Below are positions 18,625 to 55,832 of a stretch of 64,000 nucleotides of DNA, in pieces; within the stretch, counting starts at the first letter, position 1, and every line of letters begins with the position of its first letter. Origin of the DNA: a virus; the IMG/VR virus record IMGVR_UViG_3300032435_000001; one strand, given 5' to 3'. The notes beneath the pieces were generated by a model, which saw only the letters and a program-made list of their open reading frames with translations, searched no databases and had not been told where the DNA came from. Both the position numbers and the translations under genes were made by a program.

Positions 18625-21027
18625 ATGTCTAGAGTAGAAAAAGATAATCTAGGTTTTTTAGGTGAGGACTATCAGTTAAGGCTGATAGCTCAACTAATAA
18701 CTGATAAAAAATTCGCTAACGATATATTAGACATTATAGATGTTAACTTTTTTGGTGATGAATACCTAAAACTAATAGCTGTTGAGATTAAAAATGCTTA
18801 TAATACTCATCAAGTTATACCAGACTTTGAAAGTTTAGAGTTTAGATTGAAAGAAAGATTAAGTAATACAATACAGAGAGACTTCGCAATAGGTCAGTTA
18901 AATAAAATCAAAGATGTTAACTATAATGATAGCTTCAAGGTTCAAGAAATAGCTATGAAATTCTGTAAGCAGCAAGCTTTGAAAAAATCTGTTTCTGAAA
19001 TAAACGTAATACTAGAAAGAGGTGATTATGAGGAGTATGATGAGTGTGAGGTTATACTAAAGAAAGCACTTTCAGTTGGGGAAAATAAAGATTTTAGTAT
19101 TCAATTAGATAATGATATTGATGGCGTTCTAGCTGACGACTTTAGAAACCCAATAGCGACTGGTATTAAAGGTTTTGATGAATACATGAATGGTGGTTTA
19201 GCTAAAACTGAACTAGGGATTATATTAGCTCCTTTTGGTGTTGGTAAAGCTTTACCTAATTCAAATAAAATTTACACACCAGAAGGGTTTAAGTTAATGG
19301 GGTCTATTAATGTTGGTGATAAAGTATTTGGTAGAAATGGTAAGGAGACAAATGTTATTGGTGTCTACCCACAAGGTATTCGACCAATATTCAAAATTAC
19401 TTTTAATGATACTACCAGTACTTTTTGTGATGAGGAACATTTATGGGCGGTCAATTCTAATGACCAACGTAATCACTCATCTTGTAAAGTTGATAACTCA
19501 TTTAAAGTAGTTAAAACTTCTGAACTAATCAATAATTTAACTTTCGGGACTGGAAAAGATTTGAATTTTAAAATCCCAATGGTTGAACCAATTGAGTTTA
19601 ACGAACAAGAATTACCAATTGACCCATATGTTTTAGGTGTAATGCTACGTGATGGTAATATGAAGTCGTCTACGTTTACTAGTAAGGATTTAGAAGTTGT
19701 TAATGAGGTTAGTAGGTTAATGTGTGGTGTTATATCCATAAAGGAAAAATGTTTAGATATTGATAAAGATGATGTCTTAGTTAAAGAATGTTTATCTCAT
19801 GTTTCTATTCATGGTATTACCGATAAATTAAAATCGTTAAGTTTATATAATAAAAAATCTAATAATAAATTCATACCTATTAGTTATCTTCATAATTCAA
19901 AAACTAATAGGTTAGAAATACTTAGAGGTTTGTTAGATGCTGATGGTAATGTGAATAAAAATGGTAGTATCGAGTACGTTAGCGTTTCAAAAAAATTAAT
20001 TGATGATGTTAAATGGTTAGTATTATCTTTAGGTGGTTTTTGTGAATTATCTATCGGAACACCTAACTACAGTTACGATGGTGTTAAGAAGGTTGGTTGG
20101 GAAGCTTATGTATTAATCATATCATTCCCAAGTGAAAATAAAATAAAACCATTTAAATTAGCTAGAAAAAATGAACTTCTCATTACTGGGGGTATTTATA
20201 ATAGCGGTAAATTTATCAAATCGATTGAATATTCACATAAAGAAGAAGCCACTTGTATAATGGTTGATAATGTGGAACAACTATTCGTTACTGACGATTT
20301 TATTGTTACACATAACACAACTATGATTACCAAGATAGCTAACAGTGCTCTAAATCAAGGTTTTAACGTTTTACAAATATTTTTTGAAGATAATGAGAAG
20401 GTCATACAACGTAAACACTACGCTTGTTGGACCAATATAGAGTTAAATGAGTTATCTAATCATAAAGAATTAGTAAAGAAAACCGTTATTAGTAATTTAG
20501 AAGCTGGTGGTGAACTTAGGTTGTTAAAAATGAATAGTGATAATATCACGATAGCTAAGATAAAACTAATGGTTAGGAAATTAATAGCTAACGGTTTTAG
20601 ACCAGACATGATTTTAATTGACTATATCGACTGTGTTGAACCATCAAGAAAAGTAGATGATACTAATGTTGGTGAAGGTAGAGTAATGAGAGAATTTGAA
20701 ACCATGTTAAATGAGTTTGATATGGCTGGATGGACAGCAGTACAAGGTAATCGTTGTGTTGCACTTGACACTAAGGTGGATATTGAGGGTAAAGGTACTA
20801 TTGAGATAAAAGATGTGGTGTTAAATGATAAAATTTTAACTAAAGATGGTTACAAAATGGTATCACATATTTTCCCAATTCAAAAGCAACCAGTGTATAA
20901 GATAAAATTAAAATCTGGTAAGGAAATTAAAGTGAGTAAAAAACATTTCTTCCCAACATCAGATGGGGTTTTGAGTTCAATTGAAAGTGGTTTAAGTATT
21001 GGTGTTAAGTTACTAATTAAAAAATAA
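18625..21027 (+). CDS. dnaB: Replicative helicase DnaB/gp41, N-terminal fragment; contains a cis intein and ends in a split-intein N-fragment
   Basis: IATG..GFD..MNGGL, Walker A APFGVGK|TT interrupted, IDYID, WTAVQGNR followed by an intein Cys1. Confidence 0.92.
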   Translation: MSRVEKDNLGFLGEDYQLRLIAQLITDKKFANDILDIIDVNFFGDEYLKLIAVEIKNAYNTHQVIPDFESLEFRLKERLSNTIQRDFAIGQLNKIKDVNYNDSFKVQEIAMKFCKQQALKKSVSEINVILERGDYEEYDECEVILKKALSVGENKDFSIQLDNDIDGVLADDFRNPIATGIKGFDEYMNGGLAKTELGIILAPFGVGKALPNSNKIYTPEGFKLMGSINVGDKVFGRNGKETNVIGVYPQGIRPIFKITFNDTTSTFCDEEHLWAVNSNDQRNHSSCKVDNSFKVVKTSELINNLTFGTGKDLNFKIPMVEPIEFNEQELPIDPYVLGVMLRDGNMKSSTFTSKDLEVVNEVSRLMCGVISIKEKCLDIDKDDVLVKECLSHVSIHGITDKLKSLSLYNKKSNNKFIPISYLHNSKTNRLEILRGLLDADGNVNKNGSIEYVSVSKKLIDDVKWLVLSLGGFCELSIGTPNYSYDGVKKVGWEAYVLIISFPSENKIKPFKLARKNELLITGGIYNSGKFIKSIEYSHKEEATCIMVDNVEQLFVTDDFIVTHNTTMITKIANSALNQGFNVLQIFFEDNEKVIQRKHYACWTNIELNELSNHKELVKKTVISNLEAGGELRLLKMNSDNITIAKIKLMVRKLIANGFRPDMILIDYIDCVEPSRKVDDTNVGEGRVMREFETMLNEFDMAGWTAVQGNRCVALDTKVDIEGKGTIEIKDVVLNDKILTKDGYKMVSHIFPIQKQPVYKIKLKSGKEIKVSKKHFFPTSDGVLSSIESGLSIGVKLLIKK
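19249..20316 (+). mobile_element. Class 3 intein (356 aa, Ala1) with LAGLIDADG domain, inserted in the DnaB P-loop
   Basis: GK|ALPNS...HLW...CIMVD...VTHN|T; W-C-T triplet; LGVMLRDG and LRGLLDADG blocks. Confidence 0.9.
20755..21024 (+). mobile_element. Split intein N-fragment (90 aa) of DnaB
   Basis: QGNR|CVALDTKV...SKKHFFPT (block B His)...stop; no C-terminal HN in this ORF. Confidence 0.9.
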
Positions 21028-21073
21028 TTTAATAATGTTTTAAAATGGTTAATAATAAAGGGTTAGAGTATGT

Positions 21074-21538
21074 ATGGAAGAACATAAATTAAATTTAGAA
21101 GATTTTGATTTAGATGAGATTGAAAGTATTGAGTTAATTGGTTATGAAGACACTATCGATATAACAGTAGATGATACACATATGTTTTACGCTAATGATA
21201 TTTATACGCATAATAGTTCAATTAAAGCTGAGGTTGTTGAGTCAGACCAAATGGGTGGTTCGATTAAGAAAGCGCAAATTGGGCATTTCATAGTTTCAGT
21301 TGCTAGAAGTAATGAGCAAAAAGATAGTGGTCACGCTAATTTAGCAATACTTAAATCTAGATTTGGTAAGGATGGTATTGTGTTGAGTGATTGCATTTTT
21401 GATAATTCAAGAGTTCAAATTGAGATTGTTGAGCAAGAATCTAAAACGTTCTTACAAAATACTTTTGATAAAAATTCTAGGGATTTAGATAGGGTTAAGT
21501 TGATTATGGATGCTAGTAAGAAAATTAAAGAAAGTTAA
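21074..21538 (+). CDS. dnaB: DnaB C-terminal fragment preceded by a 47-aa split-intein C-fragment (21074-21214)
   Basis: [21 protein letters not shown]|SSIK followed by helicase motifs MGGSIKKAQ and ILKSRFG. Confidence 0.92.
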
Positions 21539-21555
21539 AAAAAAAAGAAAAAAAA

Positions 21556-22545
21556 ATGAGTGAGTTAAAAAAAGAACCGATTCTAACTGAAAATCAAAAT
21601 AGATTCGTTTTATTCCCAATTGAACATGATGACATTTGGAAACTTTATAAACAACAGCAAGCTAGTATTTGGACTGCTGAGGAGATTGATTTACAACAAG
21701 ACCTAAGGGATTGGAGTGAAAAGTTAAATGATAATGAGAAACATTTCATTAAACATATTTTAGCGTTCTTCGCAGCATCTGATGGTATAGTAAATGAAAA
21801 TTTAGCTGAAAACTTCCTTAGTGAGGTACAATACACGGAAGCTAAGTTCTTTTATGGTTTCCAAATTATGATGGAGAACATACACAGTGAAACATATTCA
21901 TTACTTATCGATACATACGTTAAAGAAGAGGCTGAGAGACATAAACTATTCAATGCGATAGAAACACTAAGTTGTGTTAAGAAAAAGGCTGATTGGGCTT
22001 TAAAATGGATTGAATCGGATTCTTTTGCTGAAAGATTGATTGCCTTTGCTGTTGTGGAGGGTATTTTCTTTTCAGGTGCTTTTTGTTCAATTTATTGGTT
22101 AAAGAAACGTGGTTTAATGCCAGGCCTAACATTCTCCAATGAGTTAATTTCTCGTGATGAGGGTATGCATACTGATTTTGCGGTTCATTTACATAATCAT
22201 CATGTGGTTAATAAGGTTCCAAAGGAAAGGATTATTGAAATAGTTAGAGATGCTGTTGAAATTGAAAAAGAGTTCATATTAGATGCATTACCAGTAAAGT
22301 TAATTGGTATGAATTCAGATATGATGTCACAATATATTGAATTTGTTAGTGATAGGTTATTAGTTTCATTAAATTGCGGTAAGGAATTCAACGTTACTAA
22401 CCCATTTCCATTTATGGATATGATTAACCTACCAGGGAAAACCAACTTCTTCGAGAAGAGAGTTGGCGAATACCAAAAAGCTGGTGTAACCAACACTGAT
22501 TCTAGTAAGTCTATCACTTTTGACAGTGAAGATGGTGATTTTTAA
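21556..22545 (+). CDS. nrdB: Ribonucleotide reductase class Ia beta subunit
   Basis: [49 protein letters not shown]. Confidence 0.97.
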
Positions 22546-22564
22546 CATAATATTAGATTAAATT

Positions 22565-22598
22565 ATGTGGTTAGGGTGAATATTCACCCTAACCACAT
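22565..22598. repeat. Perfect 34-bp palindrome between nrdB and nrdA
   Basis: atgtggttagggtgaat|attcaccctaaccacat; no U-tract. Confidence 0.85.
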
Positions 22599-22635
22599 TA
22601 ATTATAAGTAGATAATTATATAAATAAAAAAAAAT

Positions 22636-25002
22636 ATGAAAGTAGTAAAAAGAGATGGTATTACTAAAGAAGATGTGAACTTCAATAAAATTAGTACCAG
22701 AATTAAAAAATTATGTTATGGTTTAGACACATTATATGTTGACCATGATGAAGTCTCAAAAAAAGTTATAGATGGTCTTTATGATGGTGTTACAACTATT
22801 GAGTTAGATAGACTTGCATCTGAAACAGCTGGAGCTTTAGTATCCCACCACCCAGATTATTCTTTACTAGCTTCTAGAATTGAGATAACCGCATTACATA
22901 AAAGCACTGAGAAATTTTTCAGTAAGACAATTGAAAAATTATATTCCTATATAAATGATAAAAATGGTAAACATTCACCATTAATTAGTGATGAGTTATA
23001 TGAGGTTGTTAAGAAAAATACTAAAGTTTTAAATTCTGCGATTATAAACGATAGGGATTTTAGTTATGATTATTTTGGTTTTAAAACTTTAGAGAAGTCA
23101 TACCTTTTAAAAATAGATGGGAAAGTAGTTGAAAGACCACAACACATGTTAATGCGTGTTTCTTTAGGTATTCATGGTGGTGATGTTGAATCAGCGATAG
23201 AAACGTATAACTTAATGAGTGAGAAGTATTTTACACACGCAACACCTACATTGTTTAACGCTGGAACACCAAAACCTCAAATGTCATCTTGTTTCTTATT
23301 AACGATGAAAAATGATAGTATTGAAGGTATTTATGATACTTTAAAACAAACAGCTTTGATTTCACAATCTGCTGGGGGTATTGGTTTAGCAATACATAAC
23401 ATAAGAGCTACAGGTTCTTACATTGCTGGGACTAATGGGGTTTCAAACGGTCTAACACCTATGTTACGTGTGTTTAACAATACTGCTCGTTACGTTGACC
23501 AAGGTGGTGGTAAAAGAAAAGGTAGTTTCGCCATTTATATAGAACCCTGGCATGCTGATATCTTAAGTTTCTTAGATTTAAAAAAGAATCATGGTGTTGA
23601 AGATATGAGAGCTAGGGATTTATTCTACGCAATGTGGACCCCAGATTTATTCATGAAACGTGTTCAAGAGGATGGTGATTGGACTTTAATGTGTCCAAAC
23701 GAATGTCCAGGTCTTGCCGATGTTTACGGTGATGATTTTGAGGCTTTATATAAATCTTACGAAGAAGCTGGTAAAGGTAAAAGAACTGTGAAAGCTAAAG
23801 AAGTTTGGTTAAAAATTCTTGAATCTCAAATTGAAACAGGTACACCATATATGTTATATAAGGATGCTGCAAATAAAAAATCTAATCAGAATAATTTAGG
23901 TACGATTCGTTCTTCAAATTTGTGTACTGAAATTATTGAATACACTTCACCAGATGAGGTTGCTGTTTGTAATTTAGCATCAGTAGCTTTACCTAAATTT
24001 GTTGAGGTTAAGGATAGGAAAGCTAAAAAACTTGAATATGTGTTCAACCATAAGAAATTACATCAGGTTGTTAAGCTTATAACTATAAATCTAAATAAGG
24101 TTATAGATAGGAATTATTACCCAGTTATTGAGGCTGAGTATTCAAATAAAAAACATAGACCAATTGGGTTGGGTGTTCAAGGGTTAGCTGATGCGTTTCA
24201 AATAATGGGGATTCCTTTCACATCTAAGGAAGCTAAAGTTTTAAATGCTGCTATTTTTGAGACTATGTATCACGCAGCCATGGAATCTTCCATGGAATTA
24301 GCTAAGGTAGATGGTCCTTATGAGACATTTGTTGGGTCAATGACTAGTAAGGGTACTTTCCAATTTGATTTATGGGATGAACCTATTTTTAGTGGTATGT
24401 ACGATTGGGATAAGTTAAAGAAAGAGGTTGTTGAGAATGGTATCCGTAACTCACTTTTAATGGCCCCTATGCCGACTGCTAGTACTTCTCAAATACTAGG
24501 GAATAACGAAGCATTCGAACCTTATACTACGAATATTTACACTAGACGTGTGTTATCAGGTGAATTTATTTGTGTAAATAAACATTTAATTTTGACATTA
24601 ATAAATTTAGGTTTATGGGATGACGAAATGAGAGATAGGTTAATGATTAGTAATGGGTCGATAGCTAATTTTACTGACATCCCTGAAAATGTTAGAGATA
24701 TTTATAAAACTGTTTGGGAAATTTCACAACGTGATGTTATAGATTTATCAGCAGATAGAGGTGCGTTCATTTGTCAATCTCAATCTATGAATATATTTAT
24801 GGATAACCCAAATTTCCAAAAATTAACCAACATGCATTTCCATGGTTGGAAGAAGGGTTTAAAGACTGGTATGTATTACCTTAGAAATAAACCAGCTGTT
24901 GAAGCTATTAAATTCACTATCGACAAGACGAAATACGTCAAAGAGGATAAAGAGTTTTCAGCTGAAAATTCGGAATTTGATTGTGATAATTGTGGTTCAT
25001 AA
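22636..25002 (+). CDS. nrdA: Ribonucleotide reductase class Ia alpha subunit with ATP cone
   Basis: VVKRDG ATP cone, SSCFL, SNLCTEI, PMPTAS, KTGMYY, C-terminal CDNCGS. Confidence 0.97.
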
Positions 25003-25033
25003 AAAAAAGGGGTTTTAAACCCCTTTTTTTTAT
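24999..25033. terminator. Bidirectional intrinsic terminator after nrdA
   Basis: aaaaaaaaggggttt-t-aaacccctttttttt. Confidence 0.85.
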
Positions 25034-25084
25034 GCTTATAATTTAAATTTTAATTATATTATGTATATTTATCATAAAAGATAT

Positions 25085-25468: not shown

Positions 25469-25555
25469 CCATATTATGTATCTGTTTACATTTTAAATAA
25501 AAGATAAATATTTACAAATAAATAAAATCTTTTATATTTATTAATAAAAATGTAA

Positions 25556-27394
<1,839 letters not shown>

Positions 27395-27400
27395 AAAGTT

Positions 27401-27730
27401 ATGAGTTGTTGTAAAAGTAATGTGGATTCACCATTGGATGGTGAAAAAGAAAGTATATTAAGTAGAGTTATTGTTTTTATTGTTACCTTATTTTTGCTAA
27501 CTATATTAACACCATTTTTTTGGTTAATTGGGGTCTATTTTATATTTAATAGTTTTATTCTTAATAAGAATAACACCATCATACCTTCCATGATTTTTTT
27601 ATATAAAATTATTAATAAAAATAAAGATAAAGAAAATTTAAATGATGATAATGAAATTGAGGATATTGATATTGACAATGTAGATAACTACGAGTTAATG
27701 GATTATCAAATGGTTGATGACGATGAGTAA
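27401..27730 (+). CDS. Small membrane protein with acidic tail
   Basis: Long hydrophobic segment VIVFIVTLFLLTILTPFFWLIGVYFIF. Confidence 0.65.
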   Translation: MSCCKSNVDSPLDGEKESILSRVIVFIVTLFLLTILTPFFWLIGVYFIFNSFILNKNNTIIPSMIFLYKIINKNKDKENLNDDNEIEDIDIDNVDNYELMDYQMVDDDE

Positions 27731-30700
27731 TATTAGGATAAAAACGGATGTAGGTGTTGATAAATATCTAAAGGTTAATTTGGAACAAGATTTCGATTTT
27801 CTTGAGATATTATCATTAAAGTTATCCCAAGAAGATGTTTATAGGCGTTTTAACTCTGATTACGGTGTTGTAGTTGGTAGAGTTATCGTAAACAATGGTT
27901 TGGGTGTACCTAACGCTAAAGTATCCTTATTTATACCTTTAAATGATTCTGACTCGGAAGAGGTTAAAAGTTTATATCCATTTAACACGGCTAATGATGA
28001 AGATTTTGATGGTGTTAGGTATAATCTTCTACCAAAAGACTATCAAGGTGATTGTCACACACCAGTAGGTACGTTCCCAAAAAAGAGAGAGGTACTTGAT
28101 AATAATATTATTTTTGAGGTGTATGACAAGTACTATAAATTCACGACAACAACTAATAACGCTGGTGATTTTATGTTATTTGGTGTACCAGTTGGTAATC
28201 ACATTATAAATATTGATGTTGATTTATCGGATATTGGTCAATTCTCACAAAAACCTTATGATTTTATCGAACAAGGTAACCCAGAAAATTTATTCAAATC
28301 ATCTACCGTGTTTCTAGGTAGTAAAAATCTAAATTCCCTAACTCAACTTAAAAACCAAAAAGCAGGTGTCAATATAATACCATTTTGGGGTGAAGAGGGT
28401 GAGATTGGTATAACTAGAATTGATATGGATTTAAATTATAATTTAGTACCATCAGCAATATTTGTCGGTAGTATTTTCGGTGATAATGAGAAAAATTCAC
28501 TTAATAAAAATTGTAGACCTAGAAAAGATTTGGGTAAATTATGTGAGACGGTATCCGCTTCGGGTACTATTAATATGATTAGGAAAGATATTGATGGTAA
28601 TACTCAAAAATTTGATGTTTCTGGTGGTAATTTAATTGACGAGTTCGGTGCTTGGGCTTACCAAATACCTATGAACTTAGATTATGTTGTTACCGATGAA
28701 TTTGGTGAACTTATTCCTAGTGAGGACACCAATAAAGGTGTACCAACTAGGGCTAAAGTTAGATTTAAAATCGGTATGGATGATACTGGTGGCGAAGGTA
28801 GAATTAGAAGTAGAGCTAAGTTTTTAGTCCCTCATAACCCAAAAACTGCTGATGATATTGATTATAATTTTAATAGTGACACTAAAAGTAATAACTTTAC
28901 TGATTTATCTTGGAATAAAATATACACAGTTAGAAACCATATAACTAGAATACAATCTGCTTGTTCAGGTGGTTGTGCTGATAACAGAAGAATGATTGGG
29001 GTTAAAGATGTTGATGATTGTGTTGGTAATAAAAACCCATTCCCATTTAATAAGTTAGATGGTGATTTCAACCCATTATTCTTAATAATATGTTTAATAG
29101 TGGGTATTATTTTAATGATTTTAGAGTTAGCAAACAGAGCTTTTAGTCTTATCACTAGAGTTAGGTTGTTTGGGCGTGTTAGGTGTGTAGCTTTAGATTG
29201 TGATGGTGTTAAGTACGCACCAGGTTGTAGCGGTAGTCGTGCAAAACCTGATGGTACTAAAAGTACATCAAAAGATGCTTTAGAAGAGTGTTATAAAATT
29301 CAACTTGCTTCAGCTTTAAATATTTTTGAGTTTGATTTTTATAATGATTGGGTTAACGGTACATTATTTTCATTTTTATTAAAATATAAAAAAAAGAAGA
29401 ATAATGAGAAATTCTGTAGTGTTGATGTAAGTGAGGATAGTTACATTGTTGACACTTTAATTAATGGTAATTTAAAAAACCACGCTAGTGAAAAAATATA
29501 TAAGGGGTTCATTAAAAGTTTTAAGGGTGAATTATTTTACGCCCCATATGATAAGGATAGAGATTACATTTTATACGCAACCGATATAACTTGCTTAGGT
29601 GCTATTAATAAATGTGATTGGGAAGGTAAACCTAGTTTTCACGAATACTTACTACCTACATCATATAAGATACCACCATTAACTAATACAGATGAACCTA
29701 ATGTATCTAAATTGGCTGATAGTAATCCCAATAGAGGCCTGTTATTTACATTTTCATGTACTAAGCTTAATGCTAGTGATAATCAGATGAGTAATATAAG
29801 AAGGTTATGTGAGATTGGTGTTGGTCTAGATGAAGATAGAAATGATGAACCTAATGGTGTTTCTAAAAATAATAGTATTGGTGATGAAGACATTGATAAC
29901 CAATTTGTTAGGGATTGTTTAATTGTCTCAAATTCAAATACTTTATCTTTAACGACTACAGGTTTAAATAGTGGTTTTAATGGTTCACATTATAAAAATT
30001 ATAGAGATTTTGGTAAAAGAACTGTAAAGCAAGCTAGGGGTAATTCGTTCTATATGTATTTTGGTACAGCACCAAATAATAGCGCTATTGATAAGATGAA
30101 CGCTAAATATTTTACTAGTTGTGAACAAGTAGTGGAAGATGAGTTTATAATTGAGGGTGTGATTAGTGATGTAACGTATTTAGGTGGTAATGATGGTAGT
30201 ATAAATATCTCAATAATCGATGGTTTCGAACCATTCACATATCTTTGGAGTAATGGTGAGATTACTGAGGGGGTATCTAATTTAACCGCTGGTGAGTACA
30301 CCGTTAGCGTTACCGATGATAATGGTAGTGTTGTTAAAAAGACGTTTATAGTTAGCCAACCAAAACCAATTAAGGTTGAAATCGTGGTAAATACCACTAG
30401 AACCCCATTAAGTAGTGATGGTACATTAACTTTAAGTTCGATTATTGGTGGTAATGGTAATTATTTTGTAACAATAGTGGGCCCAACAAATAACCCAACT
30501 ACACAAACAGTTAATAACCCAATACCCAATTTCACATTTACTGGGTTGGCGAGTGGTACATATACCTTAACAGTCGTTGATACTAGTAACGTACCTTTGA
30601 CTTATAACAGTGTTTTTGAGATATTAAAACCGCCTAAATTAGAGACCACCATAACATTTACATCGCCAGAATGTTACGCACCTGATTATGATAATGATGC

Positions 30701-47357: not shown

Positions 47358-48005
47358 ATGGTAGAAAATGAAAAGAAGTTTATACTTGGGTTAGATATAT
47401 CAACCAAAACTATAGGTATTGCGCTATATGAGGATTTTGGTAGTTATGGGAAATTAGTTTTACTACACCATGTAACACCAAATGTTAAACCAATTCCAAC
47501 AAATAAAATGGAGTTGTTATTCCTAAAAGGTGATATATTTGAAAATGATTTTTTAAAAGATTACACAAATTTTAATATCCATAAAGTTATTATAGAGGAA
47601 CCATTGTTAAGGTCCAATAATGTTAATACTGTCGCAACATTATTAAAATTTAATGGAATAGTTTCTAGGGCCATCTATAAGATGTTAAACGTGGTACCAG
47701 AATACGTATCATCTTATGACGCTAGGAAATATGCTTTCCCAGAATTGATGGCGATTAGAGAGGTTGATAAAAAGGGTGTTAGGTATAGCGATAAGAAGTT
47801 ATCCACCCAAAAACCAGTTTTGTTTGGTGGGTATAAATGGGACATTGATAAAAAAAGCGTTCTATGGGATAAGGTTGCTGAGACTTATCCACAAATAAAT
47901 TGGATATACAACAAAAAGAATATTCTAACTAAAGAGAATTTTGATATGGCAGATAGTGTATGCGCAACTTTAGGGTATATGAAGAAAATGGGGTTGTGGG
48001 AATAA
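47358..48005 (+). CDS. RuvC-like Holliday junction resolvase
   Basis: ILGLDIST..IG, IIEEP, D.ADS RNase H-fold acidic residues. Confidence 0.75.
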   Translation: MVENEKKFILGLDISTKTIGIALYEDFGSYGKLVLLHHVTPNVKPIPTNKMELLFLKGDIFENDFLKDYTNFNIHKVIIEEPLLRSNNVNTVATLLKFNGIVSRAIYKMLNVVPEYVSSYDARKYAFPELMAIREVDKKGVRYSDKKLSTQKPVLFGGYKWDIDKKSVLWDKVAETYPQINWIYNKKNILTKENFDMADSVCATLGYMKKMGLWE

Positions 48006-48066
48006 AATTAAATTAAAAATTATATAATTAAATAGGTTATGTAATTTTTTTTTGTATATTTGCATA

Positions 48067-49020
48067 ATGTCACAATTAATTTTAGGTATATTAGGTAATT
48101 TTTTAGGTGTTGATAGAGGTCATAACCACGATTCAGGTCAAATAAAATTTGACTGTCCATCTTGCGCTGAAATTAATGGTAGTGAAAAAAGTGTGGGTAA
48201 GGGTAATTTGGAGGTAAACATTAATAAAGGTGTTTTCAAATGTTGGGCGTGTTATGAAACGAATAACATGAGTGGTTCAATTTCTAGGTTAATTAAAAGG
48301 TTCGGTAGTCGTAGAGATTTTGATGAGTACGTTTTAATAAACCCAAATTACAACTATGATAAGGAATATGTTATTGATGAGTTAAAAGAATTATCATTAC
48401 CTGATGGTTTCACACCATTAGCTTCTTGTGATGAAAAACTATTCCGCTTTTCCGAAGCGTCCAAATATTTAAGTAATAGAAATATAACTCATGATATTAT
48501 AGAAAAATATAATATCGGTTTCACAACTATTGGTGAATACGCTAATAGAATCATAATCCCATCATATTGTGCTGATGGTAATTTAAATTTTTTCGTTGGT
48601 AGAGCCTTTACTAAGTGGGGTAAACCAAAATATCTTAACCCTACGTTTAGAAAAGAGTTGATAACATTTAGTGAGAACTTTATTAATTGGGATGCTACAA
48701 TATATTTAGTTGAAGGTGTTTTTGATGGCATCGTAATACCAAACTCAATACCTTTATTAGGTAAGGTATTACCAATTGAGTTATTATATAAATTACAAAC
48801 TAAAGCAAAGGGTTTAATAGTTGTGGCCCTAGATGGTGATGCTTATGAGGACGCTAAAATAATTTATAAGCGTATTAACACACTAAACCTATATAACAGG
48901 GTTAGAATGATTAAATTAAAAGAAGCTTATGATTTATCATTAATCAATGAAAAGTTCGGTAGGAAGGCTATTATAGCTGTATTAAAGACTGCTAATATTA
49001 TTCCAGAGAGTGAGTTATAA
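48067..49020 (+). CDS. DNA primase (Zn finger + TOPRIM); start moved to ATG 48067
   Basis: CPSC..CWAC, YL..R.I, RIIIP, KYLNP, LVEGVFD, LDGDA. Confidence 0.9.
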   Translation: MSQLILGILGNFLGVDRGHNHDSGQIKFDCPSCAEINGSEKSVGKGNLEVNINKGVFKCWACYETNNMSGSISRLIKRFGSRRDFDEYVLINPNYNYDKEYVIDELKELSLPDGFTPLASCDEKLFRFSEASKYLSNRNITHDIIEKYNIGFTTIGEYANRIIIPSYCADGNLNFFVGRAFTKWGKPKYLNPTFRKELITFSENFINWDATIYLVEGVFDGIVIPNSIPLLGKVLPIELLYKLQTKAKGLIVVALDGDAYEDAKIIYKRINTLNLYNRVRMIKLKEAYDLSLINEKFGRKAIIAVLKTANIIPESEL

Positions 49021-49029
49021 TTAATGGTT

Positions 49030-49560
49030 TTAATAACCAATTCTATCATCATCGTATTCATCATAATCATCCATCTCAAAATCCACATCATTAGACGTTT
49101 TAAAAACTTCGATATTAATAATTTTCGCTCCAAAACCTTGATTTAATAGTGAAATCTCATTTTCGTGAGGGTGTTGCATTTTATTTGATAAAGTGGCCAT
49201 TACATCTACCAATTTTTTTGGTGCTTTAACAGTTAGCATGTAAGGTTTACCACCGCCAACATGACTAGCTTGGTTATGTGATTGCTCTAGTTCACGTCTA
49301 TTTATAACATAATGGGTACCAACCTCATTATAATTCAAATCTTTTTTATTTTTTAAAAAAACCACTCTATGTAGTGTAAGGGTATTTGGTAACCTATCCA
49401 CAATCTCCAAATTTTGTTTAAGAAAATCTTTAGCTATATCCTTATCACTAAAAGCTGTTCTCATACCTAAATCTATTAATTCTTTAACTTGAAGAGGTTT
49501 AATACCCATAGAATTCTCTAATAATTTAACCCTTAATGATTCTTTTATAAAAACTATCAT
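49030..49560 (-). CDS. Hypothetical protein, possibly ADP-ribosyltransferase-like and virion-packaged
   Basis: Only convincing minus-strand gene; own TATTTAT motif (49574-49580); LHRV / GTHY / ENEI pattern. Confidence 0.55.
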   Translation of the reverse strand: MIVFIKESLRVKLLENSMGIKPLQVKELIDLGMRTAFSDKDIAKDFLKQNLEIVDRLPNTLTLHRVVFLKNKKDLNYNEVGTHYVINRRELEQSHNQASHVGGGKPYMLTVKAPKKLVDVMATLSNKMQHPHENEISLLNQGFGAKIINIEVFKTSNDVDFEMDDYDEYDDDRIGY

Positions 49561-49581
49561 AATTTCTTTTAATATAAATAC

Positions 49582-49612
49582 TTGGATTTTAATTAAAAGA
49601 TTAGTATTTTTG
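49582..49612 (+). promoter_or_regulatory. Bacteroidota host-type promoter TTG-N20-TATTTTTG, back-to-back with a minus-strand TATTTAT
   Basis: Consensus match with correct spacing. Confidence 0.7.
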
Positions 49613-49630
49613 TGATAAAATAAAGCAATA

Positions 49631-51283
49631 ATGGCGAAAATTGAGAAAAGTATGGTCTATTTAGAACCAATAGAACATGTTTATATTCATAGGGAGAGTG
49701 GAAAGCGTTTCACATCGGTAACCAAAGTTCTATCTTCAATAGAACCTCATTTCGAGGGTGATAGAATAGCTGGTAATATCGCTAAACAATCAGACTCAAA
49801 CCCAAAAAAAAACCCAGCTTATATTGGGATGAATAAAGAACAAATATTAGATTATTGGCAAGAGTTGAATGACACTGCTAATATATACGGTACTATGGTT
49901 CATGAAATAGTTGAGAGATATCTATTAGCTAATAAAATGTATTTCACTAGCGACCCTTTTGAATTGAAGGTGATTAAAGCTTATGAAGATTTAGAGGTTG
50001 ATGAAGGTATTGAAATATACCCAGAGAGGATTATGTTTTCAGAAGAGTACGAATTAGCTGGCACTGCTGATTTAAAGATTGATATTAATGAAACATACTT
50101 TGATATTGGGGATTGGAAAGGTTTACCAATAGACACACCAATATTCACTAATAATGGTTGGAAAACTATGGCTAGCTTATCACATGGTGATAAAGTTTAT
50201 GATATGGATGGTAAATTATGTGATATTTTACATTTTTCCGAAATAAAAAATAAAGATTGTTTTGAAATTGAATTTGATAATGGTGAAGTAATAATATCTG
50301 ACCATGAGCATAGATGGTTGGTTTCATTTATGCGTAGTGGGAATTTAACTGATAAAGTTATGACATCAGAAGAATTATTTGAACACACTAATAAGTTAGG
50401 TACTAAAAGATGGTCATATAAAATACCTAAGGTTAAAATATGTAAAGCTTTGGATAATCAACACATTGATTTACCTTTAGACCCTTATTTATTGGGTGTT
50501 TGGTTATGTGATGGGGATAAAGATATTACCAAAACGATAATCGTTGATGAAAATGTTTGGTTAGAATTAAATTTGGTAAATGATAAACGTATACCAGATA
50601 CATTTTTTATGTCATCATATGAACAACGTGTGGGTTTATTACGTGGGTTTATGGATGTTAATGGTCATTATAACAAGTCACGTAAAAGATTTGTTATGTC
50701 AACAACTATAGAGTGGCAAGGAAATGAATTTAATAAGTTAGCGTCTTCACTAGGTATTAAAACAACTGTTATTAAATATAATAAAAAGGTTAATGGTGAA
50801 ATTGTTGACGTAATTGATATTTGCTTTAGTACAGATAATTTAAACCCATTTTTAAGTAAAGAGGTGTTAAATGTTGAGTATAATAATAAAACATTTAAAA
50901 ATATTATTAGGGTTAGTAAAGTAGAATCAGTGCCAACTAGATGTATCGAAGTGGGAAGTTTAACTAGTACTTTTTTATATGGGTTTAGTTTTAGTGTAAC
51001 ACATAACACAAATAAGGAATTCAATTTCTTCAATAAATTTGGTTATAAAACACTAAACAAACCTTTTGACCATCTCCAAGACTGCCAATATTCTATATAT
51101 TCAATGCAATTAAGTACTTACGCTTTGATGTGTGAAATGGAAACTGGTATGAAATGTAGACAAATATGGATTGGATATTGGGATAAAGTAAATGAGGTGT
51201 TTGAAAAGATACCAGTAATGTATTTAAAGTCTGACGCTAAAAAATTGCTAGACATACACAAGTACACACAATTATATAAATAA
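49631..51283 (+). CDS. PD-(D/E)xK exonuclease (RecB/Cas4-like) with intein
   Basis: SVT, GT.VH..VE.Y, E..., AGTADL, DWK|T split by the intein, Y..QLS.YA. Confidence 0.85.
   Translation: MAKIEKSMVYLEPIEHVYIHRESGKRFTSVTKVLSSIEPHFEGDRIAGNIAKQSDSNPKKNPAYIGMNKEQILDYWQELNDTANIYGTMVHEIVERYLLANKMYFTSDPFELKVIKAYEDLEVDEGIEIYPERIMFSEEYELAGTADLKIDINETYFDIGDWKGLPIDTPIFTNNGWKTMASLSHGDKVYDMDGKLCDILHFSEIKNKDCFEIEFDNGEVIISDHEHRWLVSFMRSGNLTDKVMTSEELFEHTNKLGTKRWSYKIPKVKICKALDNQHIDLPLDPYLLGVWLCDGDKDITKTIIVDENVWLELNLVNDKRIPDTFFMSSYEQRVGLLRGFMDVNGHYNKSRKRFVMSTTIEWQGNEFNKLASSLGIKTTVIKYNKKVNGEIVDVIDICFSTDNLNPFLSKEVLNVEYNNKTFKNIIRVSKVESVPTRCIEVGSLTSTFLYGFSFSVTHNTNKEFNFFNKFGYKTLNKPFDHLQDCQYSIYSMQLSTYALMCEMETGMKCRQIWIGYWDKVNEVFEKIPVMYLKSDAKKLLDIHKYTQLYK
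50120..51007 (+). mobile_element. Class 3 intein (296 aa, Gly1) with degenerate LAGLIDADG domain
   Basis: DWK|GLPIDTPI...HRW...TRCIEV...VTHN|T; LGVWLCDG and LRGFMDVNG blocks. Confidence 0.88.
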
Positions 51284-51286
51284 ATT

Positions 51287-51934
51287 ATGGAAAAAGAATT
51301 TTTAAAATTAGTTTCTGATTACAGCGAGATGTTATCAGACAATGGGGTTAATATGAGTAAGGTTAGGTTTATAGATAAACCAATATTCTCATATGATATT
51401 GAGAATGACAACGTAGAACCAATTAACTTTTACAATGGTAAAGAAGTTGTTAATGGTAGGATTAAAAAGGGTAGTACTAAATTATTTAACGTGGACATTA
51501 AAATCTTAGAAGGTATTTTCAATGATTTAGAGTTAGGTGTTGTAATTGTTTTAGATAAACCATTATCTAAAACATATGTTGACGGTGATTGGGTTTTACA
51601 ATGGGAAATTGGTTTCTTGGACACACTAATTGAGATGGATAGTGAGTCTGACTACATGCACGATAAACTATTATCGAACCAAACCATTATTGAGATGGTA
51701 GACTCTATAAATAATAACCTTTCAAATGATTCTGGCTCACCGATTGATTTTGCTGTCATAAGTGAAAAAACATTTAGAGTTTTAGATAATGAAAAATTAG
51801 TTATGTTAATTGATAACTCTTATTATTTAAATAAGATAAAAATTAAGGTTAACTCTAATATAGGTGATAATTTAATTTCCCTTACTAATAGAAATGAAGT
51901 TAGGGTATTAAAATTAGTTGGGTATGGTAATTAA
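51287..51934 (+). CDS. Hypothetical protein
   Basis: 215-aa ORF. Confidence 0.65.
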   Translation: MEKEFLKLVSDYSEMLSDNGVNMSKVRFIDKPIFSYDIENDNVEPINFYNGKEVVNGRIKKGSTKLFNVDIKILEGIFNDLELGVVIVLDKPLSKTYVDGDWVLQWEIGFLDTLIEMDSESDYMHDKLLSNQTIIEMVDSINNNLSNDSGSPIDFAVISEKTFRVLDNEKLVMLIDNSYYLNKIKIKVNSNIGDNLISLTNRNEVRVLKLVGYGN

Positions 51935-52736
51935 ATCAATAATACACTTAGCTGACATACATATTAGGACCTATAAATTACACACGGAGTATAACGAATC
52001 TTTTAATAAGCTTTATATTAAACTAAGAGAGTATATGTTAGGTTTTGAGTATAATGAGGTTAGAATCGTTGTAGCTGGTGATTTAGTTCACCAAAAAATA
52101 ACAATTTCAAATGAGCAATTAATCCTATGTTGCGATTTTCTAACTAAACTTTCAAAGATAGCACCAGTTGTGATAATAGCTGGTAATCACGATTTATTAG
52201 AGAATAACAAAGATAGGTTAGATTCAATATCACCAATGATTCAATTATTGGATAATAATAATATTAGTTATTTAAAAGAAAGTATATGTTATCCAGATGA
52301 GAACATTGTTTGGTGTAATTACTCTATTTTCGAAGAAAACGCTAGACCGAACATAGAAGATGGTAGAGCTAAATATGGTGATAAAACATACGTTGGTTTA
52401 TTTCACGGTCCAATAATTGGTGCTAAAACTGATGTTGGTTATGAATTTGAACATGGTACGTCATTAGAATATTTTGATGGTTGTGATATGGTATTGTTAG
52501 GTGACATACACAAACGCAGTGAGTTCAACCATAATGGTATCCCAATTAAGTTTTCTGGTTCATTAATCCAACAAAATTTTGGTGAAACGGTATCTAAACA
52601 TGGTTATACAATTTGGGATGTTAACACTAAAAGTAATGTTGATTATGAGTTAGAAAATGATTATTCGTTCTACCATTTTAAAATAACTTCGGTTGATGAT
52701 GTTCAAAATAATGTTGAAAAATTAATAAACGAATAA
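51924..52736 (+). CDS. Mre11/SbcD (T4 gp47-like) metallophosphoesterase nuclease
   Basis: DIH, GDLVH, GNHD, H, LGDIH, GSLIQQNFGE motifs. Confidence 0.9.
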   Translation: MVIKSIIHLADIHIRTYKLHTEYNESFNKLYIKLREYMLGFEYNEVRIVVAGDLVHQKITISNEQLILCCDFLTKLSKIAPVVIIAGNHDLLENNKDRLDSISPMIQLLDNNNISYLKESICYPDENIVWCNYSIFEENARPNIEDGRAKYGDKTYVGLFHGPIIGAKTDVGYEFEHGTSLEYFDGCDMVLLGDIHKRSEFNHNGIPIKFSGSLIQQNFGETVSKHGYTIWDVNTKSNVDYELENDYSFYHFKITSVDDVQNNVEKLINE

Positions 52737-52996
52737 TGTTAATAGAGATTGATGATAAGTTAATTAGTGATATTAAAGAATATTGTGAGTTGAATGATGT
52801 TTTAGACACAACATTATTCATCAGTAAAGCTATTAGGGTTGGTTTTAATAGTATTAAGTATGGACATAGAGTTACAATACCGATTAAAAACAAAAAAGTG
52901 GAACCACCAAAGGTTATTGACGTGATTAAAATTGAAAGTGTTAAAATTAATAAGGTTAATAAGGTTAATAAAAATATTTACGGAGAAGATGAATAA
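52736..52996 (+). CDS. Hypothetical protein
   Basis: 86-aa ORF coupled on both sides. Confidence 0.6.
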   Translation: MLIEIDDKLISDIKEYCELNDVLDTTLFISKAIRVGFNSIKYGHRVTIPIKNKKVEPPKVIDVIKIESVKINKVNKVNKNIYGEDE

Positions 52997-53567
52997 AATT
53001 ATAAATATTCCTCAAAGTGCTAAAATTAAAGTACATTGGGGTGATAAAGGTGAGAATTACAGTCGTGAGAATAAAATTAAAGTTAGAAATGATTTCGCAA
53101 AAAAATACGGGGTTGATAAAAATAACGTTAATATAATTTTCAGACCTTTTAAGGTAAATTCTAAAGGTGAGTTAATAGAGGTTAAAGGAGCTTCTATTGA
53201 TAATATAATGGATATTTCATATCAACGTAGCTTGATGAAGGAATGGTTCGTTAGGGAAGCTAAAAGTGTTGATTTAGATAGGTTAATGAAATTAGATGAT
53301 AAGGTAAATAATTCATTAAATATTGATTTAACACAAAAAACACATAGGTCTTGGAATTTGAAGTGGTTAATGTTAAACAATTTCTTATGTTATGGTCCAA
53401 AACAAAACTTCATATCATTCGCTAATTTAAAAGGGCTTAATGTTGTAACGTCAAACCCATCAAATCAAGGTGGTAAATGCGTTAGGGCAAACACTAACAT
53501 AAAAATTAGTTATAATGTTGATGACATAGTAAAAAAACTAGGTTTCCTACCAGATGAATTGAAATAA
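52989..53567 (+). CDS. Rad50/SbcC (T4 gp46-like) N-terminal fragment ending in a 29-aa split-intein N-fragment (53478-53564)
   Basis: W.LK.L.L.NFLCYG...GLNVV..SNQGGK (first half of Walker A), then CVRANTNIKISY...stop. Confidence 0.88.
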   Translation: MNKIINIPQSAKIKVHWGDKGENYSRENKIKVRNDFAKKYGVDKNNVNIIFRPFKVNSKGELIEVKGASIDNIMDISYQRSLMKEWFVREAKSVDLDRLMKLDDKVNNSLNIDLTQKTHRSWNLKWLMLNNFLCYGPKQNFISFANLKGLNVVTSNPSNQGGKCVRANTNIKISYNVDDIVKKLGFLPDELK

Positions 53568-53594
53568 TTAACGATAATTTTAAGAAGAAAATAA

Positions 53595-55832
53595 ATGAAT
53601 AAAGAAATAACAATTGGTGAATTAAATTCTATATATGAAAAATATGGTGATTTAAACTTTAAGGTTGAGACACCATATGGATATAAAGATATAACTTGGT
53701 GTGGTATAACCGAAGAAAATGCTGATGTATATCGTTGTGAACTTGAAGATGGTAAATACGTTGAGGGTGCTGATTACCATAGGTTAAAAAAAGAGGATGG
53801 GGATTTCGTTCTTTTAAAGGAAGTTGAGGTTGGTGAGTCGATTCAAACAGTTAATGGGATGTCTAACGTTAAATCCATTGAGTTGATGTCTTCCAAAGAT
53901 ACATTATATGACATTCAAGTGGCTGAAGTTCATCAATACTACTCCAATGGTATAGTTTCACATAATACAACTTTTAGTGTTGACGCATTAAAATTCTTAT
54001 TTTTTGGTAGAACAACTAAAACTGATAAGAATGAACAAATTTTTAACTCATATACCGATGAAAATGAGTTGAAGGTTAGAGGGATGATTGAATTCGATGG
54101 TAAGGAAATTATAATCGAGAGAAAGATGAGTAGAACGCTTAAAAAAGAAGGTGGTTGGGCTGTGAAGAATCAACTTAATTATTTTGAGTTATTACCAGAT
54201 GGTGATGAGGTTTTATTGAATGATGAGGATAGCAAGGCTTCAACTATGACAATTCAAAATACGATTGGTTCTGAGAAAGATTTTGATATTACAATATTAG
54301 CAACTGGTGGTAACCTTGAGGATTTAATCGACTCAACACCAACTGAGAGTGGTAAATTATTAACTAAATTCATTGGTCTTGAAATAATTGAGTTGAAAGA
54401 AAAATCAGCTAGGGATATGTACAATGAATTTGCTAAAACTAAAACTGCTAATATTTATGATATTACAACATTATTTGATGAGATAAATGATTGTGGTGAG
54501 AAAATTGAGTTACTAGATATTGCATTTAGTAATCAAAACGAAACTATGGGAGTATTAAATGGCAAGCTTAGTAATTTAAATGAATCTAAAGACATTAAAT
54601 TATCATCCAAAAAGAATGTTAATGAGAAAATATCAATTCTAAACCCAGATACTTTAGAGAGTAAATTATCAGCTATTGGTTTGGCTGGTAAAAATAAAAA
54701 TGTTGAGATTGCAAATTTAAATGTTGAGATTAAATCATTATTAGCTGTTGATTATGATGAATCTAAATATTTTAAATTAATTGAGGATAGAGCGATTATA
54801 AATAATGAAATATCAAATTCTGGTCTGGATAAACTTAGAATTGAAAAGTTGGTTTCAGATTTGGAAAATGGTGAGTTATGCCCTACATGTAGTAGACCGT
54901 TAGAGGATGTGGACCATTCTACTGAGATAAAAGATAATAAGGCGTTATTACTTATTAAAATTGGTGATATTATAAAATTTGAAGCTAAATTAATTGAAAT
55001 TAATAAGGTTATTGAGGATTTAAATACAAATAAATTATTAGTTGATAGGCGAATGAGGTTAGAAAACCTACTTGGTAAAAATGAATTGGAGTTAGCGCAA
55101 TTAAAGGTTGATTATGTTGACCAAAATAAACTTTTAACTGAGTATAACTTAAATAAAGATTCCATAGAATTTAACTTAGACGTTGATTTGATGGTTTCTA
55201 AGATTAAATCTGATATTCAGATTGAGGAATATAATAAATCTGAATTACTTAAAAAAATAAGTGAGATTGAAACTTTATTAAGGGATAAGAAATTATTAAT
55301 TGAGAAAAACAATGTTTTAGTTTCCAAGATTAAGAACGAGGAAGAGGTTGATAAGATATTTAAAGTTTACATTGAAATGGTTGGTAAAAAGGGTATTAGT
55401 AAACTAGTGTTAAGGTCAGTATTACCTATCATAAATTCTGAGTTATATAGATTACTTGATGAGTCTTGTGATTTTAATATTGAATTAATTATTAACTCAA
55501 AAAACGAAGTTGAGTATTTATTAGAAAAGGATGATATTTTAAAACCTTTAAAATCTGGTAGTGGTTTAGAAAGAACCATAGCTAGTTTGGCTTTAAGATG
55601 TGTTTTAGGTAAGATGTCACACCTACCAATGCCAAATTTCATTACGTTTGACGAAGTTTTGGGTAAAATAGCTGATATTAATATTGAAAAATTGAAACCA
55701 ATGTTTGAGAAGATACGTGACATGTACGAGATTGTATTTTTAATCACACACAACGACATTGTGAAAGATTGGTCTGACAATATAATATCAATAACCAAAA
55801 CTGATAATATATCAGAAATATACGTTAAGTAA
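53595..55832 (+). CDS. Rad50/SbcC C-terminal fragment preceded by a 124-aa split-intein C-fragment (53595-53966)
   Basis: ADYHRL, LYDIQV..HQYYSNGIVSHN|TTFSVDAL; CPTC zinc hook, SG.E signature, TFDEV Walker B, LITH. Confidence 0.92.
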   Translation: MNKEITIGELNSIYEKYGDLNFKVETPYGYKDITWCGITEENADVYRCELEDGKYVEGADYHRLKKEDGDFVLLKEVEVGESIQTVNGMSNVKSIELMSSKDTLYDIQVAEVHQYYSNGIVSHNTTFSVDALKFLFFGRTTKTDKNEQIFNSYTDENELKVRGMIEFDGKEIIIERKMSRTLKKEGGWAVKNQLNYFELLPDGDEVLLNDEDSKASTMTIQNTIGSEKDFDITILATGGNLEDLIDSTPTESGKLLTKFIGLEIIELKEKSARDMYNEFAKTKTANIYDITTLFDEINDCGEKIELLDIAFSNQNETMGVLNGKLSNLNESKDIKLSSKKNVNEKISILNPDTLESKLSAIGLAGKNKNVEIANLNVEIKSLLAVDYDESKYFKLIEDRAIINNEISNSGLDKLRIEKLVSDLENGELCPTCSRPLEDVDHSTEIKDNKALLLIKIGDIIKFEAKLIEINKVIEDLNTNKLLVDRRMRLENLLGKNELELAQLKVDYVDQNKLLTEYNLNKDSIEFNLDVDLMVSKIKSDIQIEEYNKSELLKKISEIETLLRDKKLLIEKNNVLVSKIKNEEEVDKIFKVYIEMVGKKGISKLVLRSVLPIINSELYRLLDESCDFNIELIINSKNEVEYLLEKDDILKPLKSGSGLERTIASLALRCVLGKMSHLPMPNFITFDEVLGKIADINIEKLKPMFEKIRDMYEIVFLITHNDIVKDWSDNIISITKTDNISEIYVK

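Follow-up and report, generated by a model that had tools for sequence, protein, structure and literature searches.

How does a single phage genome come to carry four inteins in three genes, and do the two split inteins among them form a system that was selected to keep their halves apart? The question is raised by a stretch of 64,000 nucleotides (nt) of viral DNA, IMG/VR record IMGVR_UViG_3300032435_000001, read on one strand and referred to below as the window, in which the inteins lie within positions 18625-55832. They interrupt replication and repair genes, namely those of a DnaB-like helicase (two inteins), an exonuclease, and SbcC, and two of the four are naturally split into an N-terminal half (IntN) and a C-terminal half (IntC). 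An initial annotation had regarded the two split pairs as a natural orthogonal trans-splicing system. The comparisons presented here make another answer quite probable: four independent selfish inteins from two lineages, a class-3 LAGLIDADG pair and a class-1 split pair, that reside in an uncultured jumbo myovirus.

The intein boundaries were mapped by translation and then checked against intein-free alleles of related IMG/VR phages. In these alleles, the extein pieces abut in frame (L065 for DnaB, L008 for the exonuclease, and L007 for SbcC), and the predicted spliced lengths of 461, 254, and 784 residues for helicase, exonuclease, and SbcC compare with 461, 252, and 780 residues in intein-free homologues. 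The same alleles establish the identity of the host proteins, with L065 (461 residues) matching phrog_19 DnaB-like helicase (6.9e-57) and Pfam DnaB_C, L008 matching phrog_298 exonuclease (7.4e-17), and L007 matching phrog_77 SbcC-like (8.2e-37). Because the intein-free alleles join the exteins exactly, and because an IntN and an IntC match the intein structures 6QAZ and 6VGV, respectively, the intein predictions are far above chance. Pfam is insensitive for these inteins, all Hint/intein matches falling under the gathering cut-offs; intein-free alleles and custom hidden Markov models (HMMs) were used instead. Six-frame BLAST and phmmer searches and five custom HMMs found no fifth intein in the 64-kb window, and a regular-expression scan of the window for LAGLIDADG-like motifs and HN/[CST] junctions (the slash marks the splice junction or insertion point, here and below) found nothing additional.

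The four insertion points listed in the initial annotation (DnaB GK/T, DnaB QGNR/S, exonuclease DWK/T, and SbcC GK/T) proved exact by translation and mapping, its split lengths of 90/47 and 29/124 residues were reproduced exactly by boundary mapping, and both co-resident split pairs are present in the window. The absence of inteins that it reported for nrdA, nrdB, recA, and primase was upheld as well: NrdA and NrdB of the window have contiguous Pfam domains, and the RecA-like and primase open reading frames (ORFs) are intein-free by Pfam and intein scans. The restriction of inteins to replication and recombination genes holds for the window, but not for related phages, where inteins also occur in NrdA, SNF2-like, and ligase-like genes. 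P-loops and catalytic motifs are the sites that inteins are generally known to occupy (PMC4760082, PMC5050341). All four inteins are members of described kinds: class-3 DnaB-b, class-3 RecB-like, gp41-1 type, and atypical TerL/VidaL type.

Both contiguous inteins belong to the first lineage. The N-terminal gene of the DnaB/gp41-like helicase (18625..21027, + strand), delimited by translation and mapping, encodes extein residues 1-208, a first intein, extein residues 565-710, and then an IntN. The first intein comprises 356 residues (aa 209-564; 19249..20316, + strand) and is inserted in the Walker A motif at GVGK/TTMIT; it has Ala1, a DxxH motif, Trp B12, Cys F4, and Thr G5, ends with HN/T, and yields a Pfam LAGLIDADG_3 match. 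The other contiguous intein, of 296 residues (aa 164-459; 50120..51007, + strand), lies in the gene of the PD-(D/E)xK exonuclease (49631..51283, + strand) at DWK/TNKEF, that is, in the catalytic D-x-K/T motif at the catalytic Lys of a RecB-like enzyme, and carries Gly1, DxxH, and the Trp-Cys-Thr residues. The two are 26% identical over their full length (E ~1e-15). Class-3 inteins are defined by the lack of a nucleophile at residue 1 and by a WCT triplet (Trp B12/Cys F4/Thr G5) together with the block B His (PMC6195587, PMC7664689, PMC5050341). A residue-1 nucleophile is missing from both window inteins (Ala1 in DnaB, Gly1 in the exonuclease), and the DxxH-x-W block B, the block-F Cys, and the terminal Thr-His-Asn are invariant in an alignment of 29 non-redundant alleles; on these signatures, both are therefore assigned to class 3, with nested LAGLIDADG domains. 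Initiation at residue 1 is impossible since that residue is Ala or Gly, and splicing would most likely start via the block-F Cys, the mode of class-3 inteins, in which this Cys attacks and a branched intermediate forms at it. The exonuclease, predicted at 254 residues by comparison with intein-free L008, would form by one cis-splice.

The nested endonucleases differ in state. Active LAGLIDADG enzymes have two motifs, each with an acidic catalytic residue and with small residues where the helices meet. Compared with 335-residue sister alleles, the exonuclease intein has lost about 36 residues between motifs; its motif 1 reads Cys where those alleles have Gly, and in LAGLIDADG motif 2 the catalytic Asp is changed to Asn. 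Its endonuclease is very likely inactive, the domain being clearly degenerate, and the initial annotation's description of an eroded endonuclease fits it. The near-intact endonuclease that was ascribed to the DnaB intein indeed keeps both catalytic Asp residues; however, it has an Arg in motif 1 where 20 or more relatives have Gly, and 8 residues are deleted after block B, such that the label may be generous. Further class-3-like inteins, 34-40% identical to the DnaB one, were observed in other host genes of relatives (L056 2796-3656; G005 15861-17024, L110); one is located upstream of DnaB at a distance of 3 kb, and one within a 985-residue frame.

The second intein of the helicase belongs to the split lineage. 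Its IntN (90 residues, aa 711-800 after QGNR; 20755..21024, + strand) has Cys1 and an SxxH block B, and matches the gp41-1 intein structure 6QAZ with an E value of 3.7e-13 over 87 residues (3-89). A spacer of 46 nt follows (21028..21073, + strand), where relatives have about 1.2 kb including a homing endonuclease gene (HEG) for a 380-residue Vsr-like protein. The IntC, placed by mapping (47 residues; 21074..21214, + strand), lies in a different frame, opens ORF 21074-21538, and ends with THN followed by Ser +1. The C-extein of 107 residues (21215..21538, + strand) starts with SSIK and adjoins the middle extein piece in L065. The net charges of the halves are complementary (IntN +7, IntC -14), and in block B a Ser takes the place of the Thr. 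On this evidence, the DnaB split intein is classed as a gp41-1 homologue, that is, a class-1 intein with the canonical split. The helicase of 461 residues would form by two splicing reactions, the first intein being removed in cis and the split one in trans.

The SbcC split intein is of another type. The N-terminal gene (52989..53567, + strand) encodes a 163-residue extein ending with QGGK, followed by an IntN of only 29 residues with Cys1 (53478..53564, + strand; from mapping and alleles). Its true start is the ATG at 52989, as the same start Met is found in relatives; an ORF of 86 residues overlaps the TTG start called by the program. The spacer of 27 nt (53568..53594, + strand) ends in a second TAA, so that two in-frame TAA codons separate the halves; at this place, relatives have a HEG for a Vsr-like protein of 337-349 residues, an ORF of 140 residues, or nothing. 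The IntC of 124 residues (53595..53966, + strand) opens ORF 53595-55832, carries blocks B (AxxH), F, and G, and ends with SHN before Thr +1, while the C-extein of 621 residues (53967..55832, + strand), delimited with intein-free L007, starts with TTFS. The IntC matches the VidaL structure 6VGV (E 4.5e-8; query 3-123 on chain residues 24-141), the consensus atypical intein Cat (6DSL; 1.5e-4), and TerL inteins of Kuttervirus (33-38% identity) and Vibrio phages. The block B Thr is replaced by Ala, and the alignment places AxxH likewise in the active VidaL intein. By these matches, the SbcC intein is assigned to the atypically split class-1 inteins of the VidaL/TerL type, and SbcC (784 residues) would form by one trans-splice. 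Neither a split intein in SbcC nor the SbcC P-loop as an intein host and site is reported in the literature searched.

The origin of both splits can be traced in related phages. Dassa 2009 described the fractured gene as an IntN, a free-standing Vsr-like homing endonuclease, and an IntC, and listed gp41 helicases, a HEG-less gp41-7 locus, and a terminase oddly split with a 122-residue IntC (PMC2677866). In relatives of the window phage, about 1.07-1.2 kb lie between IntN and IntC and encode a protein of 337-380 residues; such a HEG between the halves was seen in L004, L016, L019, L032-38, G002, and G006. The C-terminal domain of the interposed ORF matches Pfam DUF559/MTES_1575; the protein also matches I-Bth0305I (3R3P, E 1e-3), and its versions at the DnaB locus and the SbcC locus are homologues (E 4e-16). 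In the window, each host gene is split with its parts on the same strand, and the halves are separated by the 46-nt and 27-nt spacers alone, as expected from the initial annotation's claim of endonuclease-free split inteins. The positions of the IntN stop and the IntC start are identical in the window and in HEG-bearing alleles, including those of diverged relatives, which argues that a HEG was lost from both window loci. Both would be late-stage fractured genes, in which deletion of a free-standing Vsr-like (EDxHD-type) HEG left a stop codon and a start codon with a short spacer between them. Stop-codon read-through or recoding that joins the SbcC halves was considered and rejected, as TAA occurs twice and HEG-bearing alleles have their stop and start at these positions too. 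In L003, L005, and L006 (5582-6004), the 140-residue ORF between the SbcC intein halves takes the place of the ~340-residue Vsr-like endonuclease; it has no match in Pfam or PHROG searches, and could represent either another kind of cargo or a remnant.

The SbcC intein also exists in one piece. In L001/L002 (G002, 5923-6363), it is contiguous, in a single frame within a 947-residue ORF and with nothing between the halves. Relative to the window, the L002 DNA is shorter by 48 nt: it lacks the final two codons of IntN with the stop, the spacer, and the start with three more codons. This indel is flanked by short GAA repeats. The contiguous form would be either a re-fusion or an ancestral empty HEG site, and the GAA-flanked indel fits both. 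The IntC part of the L002 intein is 92% identical to that of the window, whereas the IntN part is only 50% identical. In a sliding-window comparison of the nucleotide sequences, exteins and IntN reach 60-69% identity and the IntC block 80-93%, and the high-identity block is bounded by the split point and by the C-terminal splice junction. Because only the IntC block reaches this identity, with sharp edges at these two places, the comparison identifies the SbcC IntC half as a module that was recently exchanged between phages. The suggestion in the initial annotation that halves may be exchanged between related phages thereby gains support at the DNA level.

Occupancy of the four sites among relatives is informative with respect to how the inteins spread. 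The DnaB and SbcC sites could be scored in 12 genomes or contigs including the window, which are phylogenetically non-independent. The window carries a class-3 intein at the DnaB P-loop and in the exonuclease, and HEG-less split inteins at DnaB QxNR/S and in SbcC. G006 shares the class-3 intein at the DnaB P-loop, has a split intein with HEG at both DnaB QxNR/S and SbcC, and lacks the exonuclease gene. In G002, the DnaB P-loop is empty, the QxNR/S site holds a split intein with HEG, the exonuclease a class-3 intein, and SbcC the contiguous mini-intein. Both DnaB sites are empty in G001 (a complete genome), which lacks the exonuclease gene and has a split intein with HEG in SbcC, and also in G010, which has a class-3 intein in the exonuclease and a split intein with the 140-residue ORF in SbcC. 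The complete genome G009 has the class-3 DnaB intein and three empty sites, and G015 has class-3 inteins at the DnaB P-loop and in the exonuclease, with DnaB QxNR/S and SbcC empty. In G004, both DnaB sites and the SbcC site are empty, and a search of the 6-kb flank revealed no exonuclease; all four sites are empty in G005, G014, and two other contigs.

Occupancy is thus mosaic over the 12 genomes, and either split intein can occur alone in relatives. L065, the closest DnaB allele with exteins 81-90% identical, is without either DnaB intein. Between phages, the inteins are more alike than the genes that host them: the SbcC IntC is 64-92% identical vs 46-54% for the C-extein, and the DnaB IntC 74-88% vs about 52% for the extein. 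Because the sites are mosaic and the inteins more alike than their host genes, independent selfish spread is favoured, and the pattern is the one left by mobile elements when each spreads and decays on its own, not that of a co-inherited system. As to the co-occurrence that the initial annotation had proposed to examine, an SbcC intein is present in all three genomes that have the DnaB split intein vs two of the nine without it.

That tally is one of the observations that would agree with the reading of the split inteins as a selected orthogonal trans-splicing system, whose split positions evolved or were kept against DnaB-SbcC chimeras. The premise that such chimeras would have to be avoided is reasonable. 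The tally is accompanied by the co-residence of both pairs in the window and in G006 (split and split) and G002 (split and contiguous), and by geometry, as the SbcC IntN (IntN29) combined with the DnaB IntC (IntC47) is without block B and most of the fold and would be unable to form a HINT domain. The claim that split geometry prevents chimeras thus stands in this direction, but not in the opposite one: the DnaB IntN (IntN90) and the SbcC IntC (IntC124) overlap, and overlapping fragments of one same intein usually splice (Pinto 2020, PMC7090010), such that any orthogonality in that direction has to come from differences in sequence. Identity between the two split inteins is only about 30-36%, with 6 of 18 aligned residues identical in the IntN29 segment. 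The same study found mutual orthogonality for 15 of its 16 split inteins (PMC7090010), and Cat or VidaL has been combined with canonical Cfa as orthogonal pairs in vitro (PMC11185735). As a lack of cross-reaction is the default among unrelated, diverged split inteins, the two window pairs are likely to be orthogonal, but as a by-product of divergence and not as a selected property of a system. Moreover, each split point coincides with a HEG insertion point and is typical of families that reside in other host genes (gp41-1; TerL/VidaL), G001 and G010 have the SbcC split intein without the DnaB one, and the co-occurrence tally comes from only 12 non-independent genomes. Since the split points are HEG positions and relatives carry either intein alone, the geometry appears inherited, and selection for an orthogonal system is improbable. 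The natural orthogonal system proposed at the outset thus gives way to two pairs derived from two pre-existing families. The decay series proposed with it does not hold either, as it mixes a class-3 lineage with nested LAGLIDADG domains and class-1 split inteins whose endonuclease is a separate gene.

Independent selfish elements also have to be weighed against readings in which the inteins serve the phage, are dead, or are artefacts. Co-option as post-translational switches that time helicase, exonuclease, and SbcCD, through the redox state of the class-3 block-F Cys or the stoichiometry of the halves, is suggested by the class-3 intein in the DnaB P-loop of M. smegmatis, which is reversibly inhibited by oxidation (PMC6195587), by the location of all four inserts in motifs on whose integrity activity depends, and by the persistence of inteins with eroded or no HEG. 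It is nevertheless unlikely, as the closest DnaB allele L065 and many other relatives function without any intein, and the mosaic presence and absence is what selfish elements are expected to leave. One or both split genes might instead be dead remnants that ceased to splice after HEG loss, with a host enzyme or a second phage enzyme as substitute. Such a decay would agree with the loss of any HEG that could maintain the element, the different histories of SbcC IntN and IntC, and the changed block B Thr (Ser in the DnaB split intein, Ala in SbcC), but it is made very improbable by catalytic residues and open frames of halves and exteins that are kept across alleles at about 50% extein identity: Cys1, the block B His, the terminal HN, and Ser/Thr +1 are kept in all split alleles. 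AxxH is, besides, present in active VidaL, the charge complementarity of the DnaB halves is retained, and a second DnaB-like or SbcC-like gene was not seen in the window (in relatives, only DnaB was searched for). A trivial explanation would be that the splits are assembly or sequencing errors in contiguous mini-inteins, for which the contiguous SbcC allele, a 48-nt indel apart, could speak. This can practically be dismissed, since 46 nt and a change of frame separate the two parts of the DnaB intein, TAA occurs twice in frame in the SbcC spacer, and stop and start recur at identical positions in at least nine independent metagenome contigs, most of which have a HEG separating IntN from IntC.

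Several points nonetheless weigh against four selfish inteins of two lineages as described above. In an alignment with Syn33 gp41, the DnaB split site (R/S) appears to be displaced upstream by about 3 residues from the gp41-1 site (RSGY/SSS), in the same QxxR-S region; the halves' homology and the canonical 90/47 split are those of the gp41-1 type, but the insertion site in the helicase is not the same by this alignment. Sister alleles of the DnaB P-loop intein partly have Ser1 or Glu1, and those with Ser1 indicate that the class-3 lineage is not uniformly free of a residue-1 nucleophile. The SbcC IntN is 50-72% identical among alleles and its IntC was apparently exchanged recently, so compatibility of the pair is an assumption. 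All splicing activities are deduced from sequence, and an AlphaFold2 single-sequence model of the contiguous SbcC allele was uninformative (predicted local distance difference test score of 36) and left unused.

Relatives can have more split inteins, with three or four pairs per genome. In G002, NrdA is encoded on the minus strand (57100-61469; L155/L156) in three pieces, the first with residues 1-436 and an IntN, the second with an IntC, residues 419-624, and an IntN, and the third with an IntC and residues 620-792; ORFs of 267 and 114 residues separate them, and the first split site is at the thiyl-radical motif N/C-x-E. Assembly of this NrdA would need two trans-splicing reactions, the middle piece having halves of two different inteins; the window nrdA (22636-25002) is intact. 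NrdA of G006 (47386-53199; L146) is in at least three pieces: a cis LAGLIDADG-type intein and a C-terminal IntN are followed by a 67-residue ORF that consists of an IntC plus 9 residues, a 255-residue piece with NrdA 297-434, a 255-residue ORF, and a final piece with an IntC and NrdA 434-792. A gap of 260 nt behind the 67-residue ORF could reflect decay, a frameshift, or an intron. Elsewhere in G006, a 329-residue ORF (141757-142743), ligase-like by eye only, starts with an IntC-like segment ending VHN/S and represents another fractured gene, and a 982-residue SNF2-like helicase (8782-11727) has a contiguous intein ending VHN/C. It is tempting, if speculative, to regard this lineage as a natural test bed of mutually compatible co-resident split inteins, in which IntN and IntC could be exchanged separately with breakpoints at the HEG site and the atypical intein could switch between cis, split with HEG, and split without HEG. 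If this is true and a half from one phage can complement the matching half of another, co-infection could lead to mutual rescue or poisoning of helicase and SbcC at the protein level.

The phage itself belongs to an uncultured jumbo myovirus lineage with complete relatives of about 340 kb, an assignment made because its many relatives are found in IMG/VR, two of them complete with terminal repeats (339,635 and 345,454 bp), and cultured relatives are only distant. The DNA of the DnaB and SbcC loci has no nucleotide match among the 50,697 GenBank phages of INPHARED, and protein relatives in cultured phages are 22-29% identical, the nearest, through the baseplate protein (27-29%), being Microcystis phage Mel-JY01 and Flavobacterium phage immuto. 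The window has a G+C content of about 30%, and its long ORFs are almost all on the + strand. Annotation with Pfam and PHROGs reveals a block of genes for replication and recombination, among which baseplate and structural genes are interspersed: a gp32-like protein, RecA/UvsX-like protein, 5'-3' exonuclease, DnaB-like helicase, NrdB, NrdA, primase, PD-(D/E)xK exonuclease, SbcD, and SbcC, as well as a sigma-70 factor (56465-57310), a gp25 baseplate protein, and large structural genes, one of them with SprB repeats. The latter encodes a 1254-residue protein (27714-31478) with weak, sub-threshold Pfam matches to the SprB repeat and to a Por-secretion-tail-like segment; together with the sigma-70 factor and the distant similarity to a Flavobacterium phage, these matches hint at a Bacteroidota host. 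The SbcD/Mre11-like phosphoesterase, the partner of SbcC, is encoded upstream (51918..52736, + strand; Pfam Metallophos 9.2e-10) and is intein-free. Small ORFs near SbcD and SbcC (52736-52996, 51287-51934, and 55876-56394) have no match in Pfam or PHROG searches.

Current understanding of inteins is not overturned by these data; what is added is the SbcC allelic series, the exchange of IntC as a module, and the large number of split inteins in this jumbo-phage lineage. The SbcC P-loop offers a natural series that runs through an empty site, a contiguous mini-intein, a split with a Vsr-like HEG, a split with a short ORF, and a split with nothing between the halves, and it bears on the gene-breaking model of split-intein origin, especially where the atypical split site, a rare one, is concerned. 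Protein engineering is offered two split inteins that occur together naturally, a new homologue of gp41-1 and a new atypical one of the Cys1/Thr+1 kind, along with an allelic pair of cis and trans forms 48 nt apart. For phage biology, an uncultured ~340-kb lineage emerges whose replication and repair genes are heavily loaded with inteins.

Each of the four inteins has counterparts in known systems. Class-3 inteins at the same DnaB-b site, after the VGK of Walker A, are found in M. smegmatis and M. leprae (DnaBi1) and in M. chimaera (DnaB1), and share Ala1, the block B DxxH, Trp-Cys-Thr, and Ser/Thr +1 with the window intein (PMC6195587, PMC7664689). The latter keeps its LAGLIDADG domain, whereas the mycobacterial ones are mini-inteins. 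M. smegmatis DnaB likewise holds two inteins, a class-3 one in the P-loop and a class-1 one (PMC6195587), but its second intein is in H4, whereas that of the window helicase is split at the QxNR motif. The exonuclease intein parallels those of the Cas4/RecB-like exonucleases of cluster C1 mycobacteriophages, which are also class-3 inteins in a PD-(D/E)xK RecB-like phage exonuclease (PMC5050341). The DnaB split intein resembles gp41-1 and the fractured genes of Dassa 2009 (PMC2677866; 6QAZ), which reside in a phage gp41/DnaB-type helicase too, as class-1 inteins split into about 88-90 and 37-47 residues, and with which it shares Cys1, the THN end, and Ser +1; without their HEGs, both window loci are most like the gp41-7 locus of that study. 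It is, however, only about 45% identical to gp41-1, it occurs in an uncultured jumbo phage of 30% G+C and not in a cyanophage, and its helicase gene also carries a class-3 intein, unlike the gp41-1 system. The SbcC intein has the short IntN (~16-37 residues) and the long IntC with blocks B, F, and G of the atypically split family, which includes GOS-TerL (PMC2677866), AceL-TerL, VidaL (6VGV), and Cat (6DSL); as in that family, its halves are encoded by adjacent phage genes, and the TerL IntC of Dassa 2009 comprises 122 residues (PMC2677866). It differs from TerL-type systems in its host, SbcC/gp46 (Rad50-like), and its Walker A GK/T site, is set apart from its TerL-type relatives by the combination of Cys1 and Thr +1, and, unlike the atypical systems just listed, occurs in contiguous, HEG-bearing, and HEG-less alleles among relatives. 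Finally, the side-by-side presence of an atypical and a canonical split intein recalls the engineered orthogonal pairs (PMC7090010, PMC11185735), which were tested in the laboratory, whereas the pairing in the window is natural and known from its sequence.

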